49,587 nt of DNA. It comes from Thermoanaerobaculia bacterium (GTDB taxonomy: Bacteria; Acidobacteriota; Thermoanaerobaculia; UBA5066; Gp7-AA6). The number at the start of each line of letters is the position of its first letter. Position 1 is the stretch's first letter. The notes under the pieces are model-generated. The model saw nothing but the letters and a program-made list of their open reading frames with translations. It searched no databases and was not told the DNA's origin. The position numbers were made by a program, and so were the translations under genes. Shown here in pieces: positions 2,813 through 46,041 of this stretch. The DNA is taken from positions 1 through 49,587 of the forward strand of contig JBOGJN010000339.1 of assembly GCA_050745445.1 (NCBI GenBank), given 5' to 3'.

Positions 2813-2898
2813 ACCGTTAAACGTTACGCGTGAAAGGTCAAACGAAGCCAGGTGGCTTCCACGCTTTACGTTTCACGTTTTACGTTTTACGTTTTACG
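2813..2898. repeat. Heptad-periodic imperfect stem-loop (ACGTTTT-type)
   Basis: The left arm is CGTTAAA CGTTACG CGTGAAA GGTCAAA CGAAGCC, the loop is aggt, and the right arm is GGCTTCC ACGCTTT ACGTTTC ACGTTTT ACGTTTT ACGTTTT ACG. Good stems include GAAGCC/GGCTTC and CGTGAAA/TTTCACG. It is markedly AT-rich compared with its flanks. Confidence 0.8.
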
Positions 2899-3302
2899 CC
2901 CTTTCGGCGCGCGAGCGGAATCACGAACCGGAGGGAGGTCAGGCGGGGCGAGAAGGCGGCGATCTTGTTGTCCAAGAGACCGGCCGCAAGACCCGCTTTC
3001 TGAACGTCTGACCAGGTGAACGGAAATCCGAGCTCCTCGGCGAACGGTTTCTTCGCAAAGACGACCCAGAGCGATCCGGCCGGTGTCAACCTCTTCTCCA
3101 GATCCCGAAAAAGGGCGGAGATCGAGCCCTCGGCCGGCACCTCCGTCATCAGCCAGGGATGCGTGCCGGGCGGCCACTGCCCGACCCATTCGACCAGGGG
3201 GCCGAAGATCTCTCGCAGCGCCTTGCGAAATTCGGGGGACTGCCCGCGCGCGTAGGGGGTCTCTTCGCCCGGAAGGGAGAATTTTGCCCAGGGGGTCTTC
3301 AC
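2880..3302 (-). CDS. Conserved hypothetical protein, DUF3052-like
   Basis: 140 aa with a GTG start at 3302. The C-terminal half (GSLWVVFAKKP...TWSDVQKAGLAAGLLDNKIAAFSPRLTSLRFVIP) resembles the DUF3052 pattern as I remember it. The last codons run into the heptad repeat. Confidence 0.55.
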   Translation of the reverse strand: MKTPWAKFSLPGEETPYARGQSPEFRKALREIFGPLVEWVGQWPPGTHPWLMTEVPAEGSISALFRDLEKRLTPAGSLWVVFAKKPFAEELGFPFTWSDVQKAGLAAGLLDNKIAAFSPRLTSLRFVIPLARRKGVKRKT

Positions 3303-3308
3303 GGCCGG

Positions 3309-3314
3309 ATTCTA
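3309..3314 (-). promoter_or_regulatory. -10-like box TAGAAT(C), 6 nt upstream of GTG 3302 (possible leaderless start)
   Basis: The minus strand reads CGCTAGAATCCGGCC-GTG-AAG. There is no SD sequence. Confidence 0.35.
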
Positions 3315-3346
3315 GCGGGGTGGCAGGCAGAAGTTGCGATCCGCGC

Positions 3347-3364
3347 TATGTCAAATCTGACATA
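3347..3364. promoter_or_regulatory. 18-bp palindrome TATGTCA-AATC-TGACATA (candidate operator)
   Basis: It has perfect 7-bp inverted arms, lies in the topA / DUF3052-like spacer, and sits about 33-50 nt upstream of the TAGAAT box at 3309-3314. Confidence 0.3.
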
Positions 3365-3427
3365 AGTCCAAGCATCCGGAATCCGGCGCGCCTTGGACGC
3401 GCTGTCAATTCGGCGGCCTTGCGCCGC

Positions 3428-42798: not shown

Positions 42799-42803
42799 AG
42801 TTC

Positions 42804-43673
42804 ATGGCTTCTTTGATTGACATCCGGCGGCGCCTGCGGTCGGTCAAGAACACGCAGCAGATCACAAAGGCGATGAAGCTTGTCGCCGCGGCGAGGCTCC
42901 GGCGCTCGCAGGACCGCGTCATCGCGGCGCGTCCTTACGCCAAGGTCCTGCGCAACGTGCTCGCCTCGGTCACTTCGCGCGCGGCCGAGCTGCAGCATCC
43001 TCTGCTCTCGGAGCGCGAAGAGAAGAACATCCTGCTGCTGGTCGTGGCCGGCGACAAGGGGCTCTGCGGCGCCTTCAACGCGAACATCCACCGAGCCGTG
43101 AACGCGCTGCTCGCGCGGGAAACGCGGTGGGAGGCCGTGACGATCCTGCCGATCGGGAAGAAGGCGCTCGATTACTGGAAGCGGCGCAAGACCCCGCTCG
43201 CGCCGAAGGCGTATCCCGGCATCTTCGCGCGCGTGACCTTTCTTGAGGCCCGGGGGATCGCGGGGGAGCTGGCGGAGGCGTTTTCGGCCGCTCGGATCGA
43301 CGCCGTCTACGTCGTCTACAACGAGTTCAAGTCGGTCATCACGCAGATCGTGCGCACGGAGAAGATCCTTCCGATTTCCCGGGGGCAGCTCACGGGCGCA
43401 CCGGCGGCAAGCCCGCCCGAATACATTTTCGAGCCGGACGCGGAGACGATTCTCGCCAGGCTCTTGCCGCGCCATCTCGAGTTCGGGATCTTCCTGACGC
43501 TTCTGGAATCTGCGGCGGCCGAGCAAGGGGCCCGGATGACGGCCATGGACGCGGCCTCGCGAAACGCCGGCGACATGATCGACTCCTTGACGCTGACCTA
43601 CAACCGCGCCCGCCAGGCGCGGATCACCAAGGAACTGATCGAGATCGTTTCGGGCGCGGCGGCCCTGGAGTAA
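42804..43673 (+). CDS. atpG: F0F1 ATP synthase subunit gamma
   Basis: 289 aa with [32 protein letters not shown] and the C-terminal [19 protein letters not shown]. Confidence 0.96.
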
Positions 43674-43683
43674 GAGGGAGACA

Positions 43684-45129
43684 ATGGCTGAGCAGAATAT
43701 CGGGCGGGTCGTGCAGATCATCGGCCCCGTCCTGGACGTGGAGTTTCCGGAGGGCCGCCTTCCGGCGATCTACAATGCGGTCGCGGTCCAGGACGAGGGC
43801 AAGGCGACGGGGGTTTCGATCGACGTGATTGCGGAAGTGGCGCAGCACCTGGGCGAGAACCGCGTACGCTGCATCGCGATGAAGCCCACCGACGGGATGG
43901 TGCGCGGCATGGCCGCGGTGGACACGGGCGGGCCGATCTCGGTGCCCGTCGGGCGCGAGACGCTCGGCCGCATCTTGAACGTCGTTGGCGAGCCCGTGGA
44001 CGGCTTGGGCCCGGTCAAGGCCGCGGAGCGCTGGCCGATTCACCGGGAGCCGCCCAGCTACGAGGAGCAGTCGACCGAGGTCGAAATGTTCGAGACGGGG
44101 ATCAAGGTCGTCGATCTTCTGGAGCCCTATTCCAAGGGAGGCAAGACGGGCCTCTTCGGCGGCGCCGGTGTGGGCAAGACCGTCATCATCATGGAGCTGA
44201 TCAACAACGTTGCCATGCAGCACGGCGGCTTCTCCGTCTTTTCGGGCGTCGGCGAGCGCACGCGCGAGGGCAACGACCTGTACCTGGAGATGACGGAGTC
44301 GGGCGTCATCACGCCCGGAGACCCGGGCAAGTCCAAGGCGGCGTTGATCTACGGCCAGATGACCGAGCCCCCCGGCGCGCGCCTGCGGGTGGGGCTGACT
44401 GGCTTGACCGTGGCCGAGTATTTCCGCGACACGGAAGGCAAGGACGTGCTTCTCTTTATCGACAACATCTTTCGCTTCACCCAGGCGGGCTCGGAGGTGT
44501 CGGCGTTGCTCGGCCGCATGCCCTCGGCCGTCGGCTATCAGCCCAACCTCGCGACCGAGATGGGGGAGCTTCAGGAGCGGATCACCTCGACCAAGAAGGG
44601 ATCCATCACCTCCGTCCAGGCGATCTACGTTCCGGCCGATGACCTGACCGACCCGGCGCCGGCAACGGCCTTCGCGCACCTGGATGCGACAACGGTTCTC
44701 TCGCGCCAGATTGCGGAGCTCGGGATCTACCCGGCGGTCGATCCGCTCAACTCGACCTCGAAAATCCTGACGCCGCGTCTCGTCGGGGAAGAGCACTACA
44801 TGGTCGCGCGCGCGGTCCAGGCGGTGCTCCAGAAGTACAAGGACTTGCAGGACATCATCGCGATCCTGGGCATCGACGAGCTCTCCGAGGACGACAAACT
44901 CGCCGTTGCCCGGGCGCGCAAGATCCAGCGATTTCTCTCACAGCCGTTCTTTGTCGCGGCGCAATTTACCGGTCACGAAGGGCGCTACGTGAAGATCGCC
45001 GACACGATCAAGGGCTTCCGAGAAATCGTCGAGGGCAAGTGCGACGACATGCCGGAACAGGCCTTCTACATGGTGGGCACAATCGAGGAGGCTCGCGAGA
45101 ATGCTCAGAGGCTGGCTCAGGTCGCGTAA
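43684..45129 (+). CDS. atpD: F0F1 ATP synthase subunit beta
   Basis: 481 aa with the Walker [16 protein letters not shown] and DELSEDD. Confidence 0.97.
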
Positions 45130-45142
45130 GCAGGCAAGCGCC

Positions 45143-45937
45143 ATGGATCTGAGGATCGCGGGCCGCGTGGCCATGGTCGCAGCCTCGAGCAAAGGCATCG
45201 GCAAGGCCGTTGCGCTCTCGCTGGCCCGTCAGGGCTGCCGCGTCTCGATCTGCGGCAGAACCGCCGAACCCCTCCAACGGGCCTGGAGGGAGATCGCCGC
45301 GGCGGTGCCCCAAGGCGAACTGCTCGCCTCCCCCTGCGACGTGGCGAAACTGGAGGATCTGGAGGCCTGGCACCGTGCCACGGTCGAGCAGTGGGGACCG
45401 GTGGACATCCTGGTGACGAACACGGGAGGGCCTCCGGCCGCGCGGTTTCTCGATCTGACCGAAGACCAGTGGAGAGAGGGCATCGACTCGACTCTCTTGA
45501 ACGTCGTGCGTCTCTGCCGGCTCGTGCTGCCGTCGATGCGGGAGCGCCGGTGGGGCAGGATCGTCCACTTAACCTCGCTGGCCGCAAAGCAGCCGATCGA
45601 TCTCTTGACCGTCTCCTCGACGCTGCGGGCCGGCCTCTCGGCTCTGACCAAGACCATGTCGAACCAATTCGCGGGCGACGGCGTCCTGGTCAACGCCGTG
45701 CTTCCTGGTCATGTCCTGACGGACCGGCAGACGCACTTGAATGAGATCCGGTCGAGGGAGGAAGGGATTTCGGTCGAAGAGTACGCGGCGAGAGTCCAGA
45801 AGTCCGTGCCGCTCGGCCGCTACGCACAGCCCGAGGAAATCGGCGATGTCGTGGCCTTTCTTTGCAGCGAGCGGGCCAGCTACTTGACAGGCGCCTCCCT
45901 TGCGGTAGACGGCGGCGTCATTCAGAGCACGTTTTAG
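45143..45937 (+). CDS. SDR-family oxidoreductase of the BKR-like 'AASSxGIG' subgroup, inserted between atpD and atpC
   Basis: It contains [38 protein letters not shown] and NAVLPG. The usual YxxxK position appears to read S-T-L-R by my alignment. ATG 45143 is 14 nt after the atpD stop. Confidence 0.85.
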
Positions 45938-46041
45938 ACGAGGACGTAGGTGGTAGGACGTAGGTGGTAGGACGTAGGACCTAGGAGGTAGGACGAAGTC
46001 TTTTTCCTTTTCTCCTACGTCCTTCGTCCTACGTCCTCTTC
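45938..46041. repeat. Heptad-periodic stem-loop (GGACGTA/GGTGGTA-type) between the SDR gene and atpC
   Basis: Eight left-arm heptads (GGACGTA GGTGGTA GGACGTA GGTGGTA GGACGTA GGACCTA GGAGGTA GGACGAA; 45942-45997) are followed by a T-rich loop and the right arm CCTACGT CCTTCGT CCTACGT CC. The 23-mer at 45946-45968 is identical to 17633-17655. Confidence 0.88.

Follow-up and report, generated by a model that had tools for sequence, protein, structure and literature searches.

The question raised by this stretch of DNA is what kind of element fills the spacers at several of its gene junctions. The stretch, here called the window, comprises 49,587 nt of a Thermoanaerobaculia bacterium (Acidobacteriota; assembly GCA_050745445.1, contig JBOGJN010000339.1), and its Pfam annotation is that of a chromosomal origin region. 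At seven junctions between co-directional genes, an initial annotation had described stem-loops whose arms are tandem arrays of 7-nt units. This observation was confirmed here and is statistically solid. We give about an even chance to the explanation that the loci are heptanucleotide repeat hairpins of the short tandemly repeated repetitive (STRR) type, which have grown by slippage, have been dispersed, are co-transcribed and probably form stem-loops in the mRNA between two cistrons.

Heptad arrays in the window

At every one of the seven loci (Table 1), Tandem Repeats Finder (TRF) reported repeats of period 7 or period 14, which identifies them as tandem arrays. The periodicity was also followed by a gap-free lag score, calculated for lags 4-15 over 4,725 nt of intergenic DNA and 44.8 kb of coding DNA. 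Within the intergenic DNA, five arrays were found at lag 7 and four at lag 14, and none at all remaining lags. No array was detected in 200 dinucleotide-preserving shuffles of the intergenic DNA, and none at any lag in the 44.8 kb of coding DNA. The excess over shuffled intergenic sequence that had been anticipated is therefore present in the window, with nine arrays against none. The list of seven loci stood as given, except that an eighth junction, pdxR/pdxS, had been missed.

Table 1. Tandem-repeat arrays of the window and period-8 hairpins in related loci. A slash between two gene names marks a junction; neighbouring genes of the window follow Pfam annotation. Folds are predicted, with z calculated against shuffles.
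Feature	Positions	Strand	Location	Units and arms	Repeat calls	Predicted fold
Locus 1	2813-2898	minus	between ORF 2880-3302 (unannotated) and trmFO	(ACGTTTT)5.4 at 2861-2898 (plus strand); degenerate opposing arm AAACGNN at ~2815-2848; small GGAAGCC/GGCTTCG hairpin between the arms	TRF score 62; lag-7 score 41	2793-2905: -32.2 kcal/mol, z -1.65 (weak hairpin)
Locus 2	17628-17700	minus	pdxS/pdxT (SOR_SNZ and SNO)	G-rich GGACGTA/GGTGGTA arm 17628-17655; complementary arm 17671-17696; 5 nt lie between its end and the pdxT GTG at 17622	TRF 17628-17655 and 17678-17696; period 14, score 49	17621-17704: -31.3 kcal/mol, z -2.2
Extra locus	18603-18620	minus	pdxR/pdxS	single-arm (GAGTCGA)2.5; 4 nt past the pdxR stop, with the Shine-Dalgarno sequence and ATG of pdxS behind it	lag-7 match	
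Locus 3	21154-21231	minus	gyrA/fsa	CAGCYGA type; arms AGCCYTC/AGCCGAC 21154-21177 and AGCTGAA/AGCCGAA 21205-21231	TRF 21205-21228, score 34; lag-7 matches	21133-21234: -42.7 kcal/mol, z -1.6 (weak)
Coding-region array	32910-32936	plus	within jag, low-complexity linker	decayed GAGTCGA family	lag-7 match and translation	
Locus 4	33451-33486	plus	jag/mnmE	(GAAATTC GAATTTC)2.5; tandem palindromic 14-mer	TRF period 14, 100% matches, score 72	13-bp A/U-rich hairpin, z -2.9
Locus 5	34858-34935	plus	mnmE/mnmG	GAGTCGA-family hairpin; arms GAGTCGA/GGGTCGA 34858-34890 (overlaps the mnmE stop) and TCGACTC 34905-34935	TRF 34860-34882 and 34905-34935	34857-34953: stem ~26 bp, -54.1 kcal/mol, z -5.8
Locus 6	42764-42798	plus	atpA/atpG	(GAAATTC)4.4 and GAATTTG; self-complementary through its TTCGAA core	TRF 42764-42794, 100% matches, score 62	z -2.8
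Locus 7	45937-46041	plus	SDR/atpC	arms GGACGTA/GGTGGTA, 8.6 units, 45937-45995, and CCTACGT 46013-46037; T-rich loop	TRF scores 76 and 69	45935-46052: -58.6 kcal/mol, z -5.8
Period-8 hairpin, L002	5144-5228		jag/mnmE	GATCGGGY / GATCACCC		
Period-8 hairpin, L162	2140-2222		jag/mnmE	GATCGGGY / GATCACCC		
Period-8 hairpin, L165	4211-4293		jag/mnmE	GATCGGGY / GATCACCC		
Period-8 hairpin, L183	3557-3622		ECH/NAT	GATCGGGY / GATCACCC		

Five of the seven loci carry two complementary arms and the two GAAWTTC loci are self-complementary arrays, and together they form one class of tandem-repeat-armed stem-loops, as had been proposed. The predicted hairpins are uneven in strength: in comparison to shuffles, two loci reach a z-score of -5.8, three lie between -2.2 and -2.9, and two are weak (-1.65 and -1.6).

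The arrays fill same-strand junctions, several of them within operons as judged from the Pfam-annotated neighbours. They begin 0-8 nt past the stop codon or overlap it, and they end 5-21 nt before the next start codon, which agrees with the junctions and distances given in the initial annotation. All seven loci and the pdxR/pdxS array lie in spacers, and contact with coding DNA was seen only at the jag-internal array and at the end of the open reading frame (ORF) at 2880-3302. For locus 1 the placement had to be corrected, since the stop codon of this upstream ORF lies inside the array.

This ORF (minus strand, 140 codons) is unannotated and without a Pfam match. It is coding-like in its G+C content at third codon positions (GC3 0.78) and ends in RRKGVKRKT, its last codons and stop being supplied by the (GTAAAAC)n array. 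Also on the minus strand, the mechanical ORF starts of pdxT (17703) and pdxS (18628) read through the repeat arrays, and translation more likely begins at the GTG at 17622 for pdxT and at an ATG at ~18589 for pdxS. The pdxT gene call in L181 has the same too-early start (L-numbers denote fetched relative or comparison loci, P-numbers homologous proteins). The jag-internal GAGTCGA array, decayed in the window, comprises 31 nt in L164 (2698-2728), L162 (1607-1637) and L081 (543-573). It leaves the reading frame intact because three units equal seven codons.

With respect to orientation, arrays are present in 8 of the 19 co-directional spacers and in none of the other 4 (2 divergent and 2 convergent only), a difference which is not significant (Fisher p = 0.15). 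The statement that divergent and convergent spacers are free of arrays holds for the window, but the related locus L183 has a GAGTCGA hairpin in the convergent spacer between NAT and MBL. The low G+C content ascribed to the loci was likewise found only in part. In the window, which has a G+C content of 64.6%, it applies to the GAAATTC loci (0.33) and to the ACGTTTT array, whereas the other loci (0.54-0.60) were judged to be within the range of ordinary spacers (0.56-0.77).

Five unit families were distinguished in the window, GAAWTTC, GAGTCGA, the G-rich GGACGTA/GGTGGTA, ACGTTTT and CAGCYGA. Three of them recur at two to three loci each within 50 kb (GAAWTTC and the GGACGTA type twice, GAGTCGA three times), and in close relatives a small set of families (GAAWTTC, GAGTCGA, the G-rich GGACGTA and the period-8 GATCGGGY) is spread across many junctions. 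By chance, ~0.03 coincident pairs would be expected for 9 loci and 1,172 heptamer classes, and the recurrence in the window alone is far beyond this. Outside the window, GAGTCGA arrays were found on 10 IMG/VR contigs, some of them as full hairpins, and a scan of IMG/VR for GAAWTTC arrays gave no match.

A survey of 160 loci (2.1 Mb, many phyla), which were fetched via ParB and MnmE, revealed that, multiples of three set aside, period 7 is the most frequent. Here, 16 arrays of period 7 were counted, 4 of period 8, 2 of period 10 and 1 of period 11, and periods 4 and 5 gave no array. Paired, hairpin-forming arrays were concentrated in the loci from Acidobacteriota. Period 7, which holds for the window, is not strict, since relatives carry the same architecture at period 8 (Table 1). 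Judged from these sequences, period 7 appears to be preferred and not obligatory. Within the survey, L016 from a metagenome-assembled genome (MAG) of Nitrospirota with 41% G+C contains, over 21 kb, many single-arm heptamer arrays (AGTGACG, GTCACTY, ACCACTG, AGAAGTG) and two of period 8, which indicates that heptamer arrays are also abundant in an unrelated low-G+C lineage.

Several known classes of element were considered and rejected. The units are contiguous, 7 nt long and without spacers, which is not CRISPR-like, and a coding reading fails as 7 is not a multiple of 3. G-quadruplexes were rejected since GAAATTC, GAGTCGA, ACGTTTT and CAGCYGA are without G3 tracts and GGACGTA/GGTGGTA offers only GG runs. 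An assignment to repetitive extragenic palindromic (REP) sequences or bacterial interspersed mosaic elements (BIME) was rejected as well, because there is no consensus shared among the loci, the units differ and no Y1 transposase domain is present among the proteins of the window. A scan of the window with Rfam 15 gave nothing at gathering score, and at E <= 1 the sole overlap was a chance match to mir-641 (E = 0.56).

Orthologous junctions in relatives

For comparison, homologues of MnmE, AtpG and PdxS were collected together with the contigs encoding them, which gave 3-8 close relatives per junction. The nearest relatives are MAGs of uncultured Thermoanaerobaculia (Acidobacteriota). Identity to MAG or metagenome proteins reaches 96% for MnmE, 98% for PdxS and 86-89% for AtpG, and ParB is 68-70% identical to species representatives. 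An exact-protein look-up of the window AtpG returned no record.

At jag/mnmE, L164 and L081 (MnmE identity 82-83%) have an identical 35-nt array, L081 being without the adjacent 7-nt block AGTGTTC. L161 (96%) shows a few substitutions and L163 has 4 units, and in L162, L165 and L002 the period-8 hairpin stands in place of the GAAWTTC array. At mnmE/mnmG, the homologous hairpin of L164 carries 10 substitutions, and L162 has GAGTTGA/TCAACTC where the window has GAGTCGA/TCGACTC, so that both arms are altered. This hairpin is decayed in L163 and missing in L165. L002, L082 and L009 contain heptad hairpins with other units, and L161, the closest relative, has an empty spacer of 6 nt.

The GAAWTTC array at atpA/atpG has orthologues of 4-5 units across L166-L170, with 5 units in the window, L166 and L170 and 4 in L169. 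At SDR/atpC, the 105-nt GGACGTA hairpin of the window is absent from L166 (8-nt spacer), and L169 has a hairpin of the GAGTTGA family. At pdxS/pdxT, the window has the GGACGTA type, L182 (98% PdxS identity) four units of GAAWTTC, and L181 and L183 arrays of a GGGAGAC type. The direct GAGTCGA arrays at pdxR/pdxS count 2 units in the window, 3 in L182 and 5 each in L181 and L183.

Thus, between close relatives an element is kept, decayed, cleanly deleted or swapped for another family at the same junction. Turnover is quick relative to protein divergence. Orthologous arrays differ in length partly by whole 7-nt units, which is a signature of slippage, and in the STRR-type explanation the arrays would gain and lose units through slippage during replication, 7 nt at a time. 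Existing families must also give rise to new copies, which could be provided by some copy-and-paste or recombination route.

The swaps could also be produced by small non-autonomous mobile elements, similar to REP/BIME or to miniature inverted-repeat transposable elements, which would be copied by a hairpin-recognising enzyme acting in trans, the 7-nt period being secondary. Families indeed occupy differing junctions in close relatives (among them GAAWTTC at pdxS/pdxT only in L182 and GAGTTGA at SDR/atpC only in L169), the period-8 family is present at two loci of one MAG, and GAGTCGA hairpins are present on the 10 IMG/VR contigs. However, pairs of filled and empty sites display neither a target-site duplication nor conserved element ends, and element length and unit number vary continuously, part of the variation being in whole units as expected from slippage. 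Furthermore, Pfam annotation revealed no transposase in the window, and no RAYT-like gene is present there. Mobile elements are therefore an unlikely explanation.

Some junctions, such as jag/mnmE and pdxS/pdxT, are occupied in almost every relative, whichever family is present. This near-constant occupancy suggests either that a structure is needed there or that the site is a lasting hot spot.

Arrays that have been retained at the mnmE junctions are well-conserved. Between the window and L164, identity amounts to 0.98 at jag/mnmE and 0.87 at mnmE/mnmG, in comparison to 0.64 in the yidC/jag spacer and 0.66 at third codon positions of mnmE (p ~3e-7 and ~7e-7 for the higher conservation of the respective arrays). 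The retained arrays thus evolve more slowly than the neighbouring spacer and are apparently constrained.

An alignment of three mnmE/mnmG hairpins by MAFFT was made to detect covariation. L162 aligned poorly due to register shifts, and a mutation simulation was used instead, in which the window hairpin was mutated randomly with the number of changes as observed. Random mutation gave -37.5 ± 6.1 kcal/mol, in comparison to -45.1 for the hairpin in L164 (10% tail), and the reverse simulation placed the observed fold in the 0.4% tail. The substitutions thus tend to preserve stem pairing. The change of both arms in L162 likewise preserves the structure. Arm complementarity might be maintained because pairing is selected, because the hairpin templates a template switch, or through a combination of the two.

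These data have to be weighed against the possibility that the same STRR-like hairpins have no adaptive role. They would then be by-products of slippage or selfish repeats in tolerant spacers, with any effect on the mRNA being incidental, and spacers after stop codons would tolerate repeats because they are without a promoter. Loss, decay and swapping between relatives with 92-98% protein identity would be in line with this, as would the extension of arrays into genes (the linker of jag and the last codons of ORF 2880-3302), the copy in the convergent spacer of L183, the Xanthomonas arrays for which no function was found, and a bias toward sense-strand folding that is not significant. On the contrary, the retained arrays are far better conserved than neighbouring spacer and third codon positions, jag/mnmE and pdxS/pdxT are occupied in nearly all relatives despite differing families, and pairing tends to survive substitutions. 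The absence of a role is therefore possible, but we consider it doubtful.

The genes around these junctions were assigned by Pfam. The minus strand carries dnaA, dnaN, recF, gyrB, gyrA, fsa, a pdxR-like gene, pdxS and pdxT, with dprA, topA and trmFO farther along. The plus strand holds yidC, jag, mnmE, mnmG, rsmG, parA, parB, a bactofilin gene, atpF'FHAGD, the short-chain dehydrogenase (SDR) gene and atpC. A search for tRNA and tmRNA genes in the window gave none. The SDR gene (adh_short_C2, 45101-45937) lies between atpD and atpC with a 29-nt overlap with atpD. This arrangement is also present in the close relatives L166 and L169, and L001, L004 and L008 have no SDR gene, atpD adjoining atpC.

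Other features of the same spacers and genes were observed in addition. The gyrB/gyrA spacer (23875-23968) holds a 94-nt non-periodic long hairpin beginning with GTCATCCTGAGCGCAGCGAAGGATC (-48.9 kcal/mol, z -3.55), which is REP-like in appearance and distinct in kind from the heptad arrays. A search of 181 fetched sequences gave no further copy of it. A parS-like site TGTTCCACGTGAAACG (37437-37452), with 1 mismatch to TGTTNCACGTGAAACA, is located at the rsmG 3' end, immediately ahead of parA. The mnmE/mnmG spacers of many distant bacteria (loci L094-L155) are filled by 1-3 perfect TGTTTCACGTGAAACA palindromes. P0014 from a relative with 66% MnmE identity comprises 735 residues and has the Pfam domains of both Jag (R3H) and MnmE. 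This points to a fusion of Jag with MnmE, in which case the jag/mnmE spacer would be lost in that lineage.

Possible effects in the transcript

Since the arrays lie inside operons, they are probably co-transcribed. An array and its complement usually stand side by side, so that the transcript or single-stranded DNA would fold into a stem-loop. An mRNA stem-loop would be the most likely effect, because the arrays are in operons, are without U-tracts, start within the ribosome footprint of the stop codon and have stems that reach 26-30 bp. Such a stem-loop could act as a barrier to 3'-to-5' exonucleases or, for stems of at least 26 bp, as an RNase III site, and thereby the stability and translation of neighbouring cistrons would be uncoupled. 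Neighbouring cistrons are uncoupled in a similar way by REP elements and, in operons with selective RNA processing and stabilisation (SRPS), by intercistronic stem-loops.

An influence on the downstream gene would fit to the Shine-Dalgarno sequences. For genes after arrays, the mean energy of the duplex with the anti-Shine-Dalgarno sequence is -2.3 kcal/mol, in comparison to -5.4 kcal/mol for the others (Mann-Whitney p = 0.028), and a Shine-Dalgarno sequence is absent in 6 of the 8 genes behind arrays and in 7 of the 31 others (p = 0.01). These weak sequences fit an influence on downstream translation and the idea of 'translational coupling' put forward for STRR.

A stable stem directly after a stop codon could instead be read as a terminator or attenuator that sets the stoichiometry within an operon, for example by keeping atpG below atpA, and the position at atpA/atpG would fit the 3:1 ratio of alpha to gamma. 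Intrinsic (Rho-independent) terminators were rejected, since the U-tract is missing on the sense strand at every locus, as the initial annotation had already stated for several of them. At locus 7 the T-run lies in the loop and not after the stem, and the only terminator-like match is antisense (33487-33458). Moreover, terminator-like sites are not enriched in the window (14 versus 14.9 expected; 19 versus 15.6), and the essential downstream genes atpG, atpD, atpC and mnmG need read-through. A role in termination or attenuation is thus highly improbable.

The arrays might also serve as binding sites for a protein reading the 7-nt register, either a cold-shock, OB-fold or KH protein on RNA or a DNA-binding protein recognising the TTCGAA core. 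The GAAWTTC unit is unchanged across lineages with ~35% synonymous-site divergence, and partnerless single-arm arrays exist and are conserved (pdxR/pdxS), both of which would suit a binding array. For CspB, one protein per heptamer has been described (MacGregor, 2015, PMC4679880). Against this, at least five unrelated units and a period-8 family share architecture and placement, so that one protein cannot read all of them, and families substitute for each other at one junction. We therefore regard binding arrays as very unlikely.

Several points weigh against the STRR-type explanation with its stem-loop in the mRNA. Not all length differences are multiples of 7, since between L181 and the window the pdxR/pdxS spacer differs by 12 nt, the window having the shorter one, and the clean losses in the closest relatives reveal that each individual copy is dispensable. 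The conservation of arrays over controls is not seen in the atp region, the identity between the window and L169 being 0.79 for the array and 0.87 for atpC/LOG. Most relatives are metagenome assemblies, where repeats can be mis-assembled. For loci 1 and 3 the fold is barely more stable than in shuffles, and the Shine-Dalgarno result is drawn from 8 genes, some of them with uncertain start codons. For Xanthomonas arrays, Rehm et al. found no regulatory role (PMC4692102). A role at the level of RNA is predicted from the sequence. Among 14 hairpins, the better fold is that of the sense strand in 7 cases and that of the antisense strand in 3, with 4 ties, and G-U pairs number 32 in sense and 23 in antisense. 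Neither difference is significant, and the structure is therefore not assignable to RNA rather than DNA.

A bolder explanation, which we consider rather unlikely, is that the heptad and octad hairpins represent a copy-and-paste system aimed at the nucleotides just after stop codons, overwriting the spacers. It would act by hairpin-templated synthesis or through a dedicated enzyme or RNA-binding protein that reads the 7-nt register, and the copies would jointly form a post-transcriptional layer replacing Shine-Dalgarno-dependent initiation downstream. If this were true, the filled, empty and replaced junctions of Thermoanaerobaculia would allow the spread of STRR-like families to be tested.

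Relation to known heptamer repeats

REP and BIME elements are imperfect palindromes dispersed within operons, where they follow directly on stop codons, are without a U-tract and act as barriers to mRNA decay. The arrays of the window resemble them and the SRPS stem-loops in placement and in the missing U-tract, and a barrier to mRNA decay is also the mechanism proposed for the arrays. In contrast, REP has a conserved sequence of ~35 nt and a RAYT transposase, and no internal 7-nt period.

The initial annotation knew of no described class of element defined by period-7 arms. This does not hold, since hairpins of STRR in cyanobacteria and inverted heptamer pairs in Xanthomonas have already been described (PMC2670836, PMC4692102). 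According to the summary given in PMC4692102, many bacteria have more heptameric simple repeats in their intergenic DNA than expected (Mrazek et al., 2007). STRR were named, as cited in PMC4692102 and PMC2670836, as heptanucleotide repeats of filamentous cyanobacteria (Mazel et al., 1990). STRR hairpins are found between the co-transcribed hupS and hupL in four species, and a higher transcript stability or translational coupling have been proposed as their roles (PMC2670836).

The arrays of the window share with STRR the tandem 7-nt units, the presence of several families per genome, the intergenic position including the inside of operons, and the capability to form hairpins. Also similar is the variation of unit number between relatives (5 versus 4, 2 to 5, and the deletion of one 7-nt block). 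In contrast, the host is a Thermoanaerobaculia bacterium of 65% G+C and not a filamentous or heterocystous cyanobacterium, so that the arrays are not STRR in the strict sense. Furthermore, the unit sequences of the window are unrelated to STRR, relatives have period-8 versions, and most loci of the window are paired complementary arrays, whereas STRR are single direct arrays.

For Xanthomonas, ~185 (GGGAATC)n arrays have been reported, including 70-75 inverted pairs with the potential to form stem-loops (Rehm et al., 2015, PMC4692102). Of these arrays 89-93% are intergenic, and the mean distance to the upstream stop is 28 nt. The ORFs on either side are co-directional in most cases and rarely divergent. 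Their positions are kept between species, length and sequence vary, and no function was found (PMC4692102). The window arrays are similar in that complementary heptamer arrays stand in convergent orientation, with stem-loop potential and near the upstream stop (0-8 nt in the window). They differ in that Xanthomonas has a single G-rich family with G-quadruplex potential, whereas several families, most of them not quadruplex-capable, are present here. Swaps between families at a given junction were seen here and are not reported there.

Direct TAACTGA heptamer repeats are present in intergenic DNA of Beggiatoaceae, cyanobacteria and Bacteroidetes, where they end a few nt before start codons (MacGregor, 2015, PMC4679880), and a role in translation has been suspected (PMC4679880). 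The single-arm GAGTCGA array ahead of pdxS is similar to these. Unlike the arrays of the window, the TAACTGA repeats are almost all direct (1 inverted in 170), have units containing stop codons and form a single family (PMC4679880).

Knowledge of heptamer tandem repeats goes back to 1990 for cyanobacteria and to 2015 for Xanthomonas and Beggiatoaceae, and a single unit sequence can occupy hundreds of junctions. The arrays are the same kind of element as STRR and the Xanthomonas heptamer pairs, now in a new phylum, Acidobacteriota. They explain annotation artefacts such as A/T-rich islands in a G+C-rich genome, too-early starts (pdxT, pdxS) and gene ends running into repeats. In addition to this extension to Acidobacteriota, the window and its relatives add the preference for period 7 and a series of genomes with filled, empty and swapped junctions, which provides material to study how such repeats spread and to tell whether arm pairing reflects selection or the symmetry of mutation.

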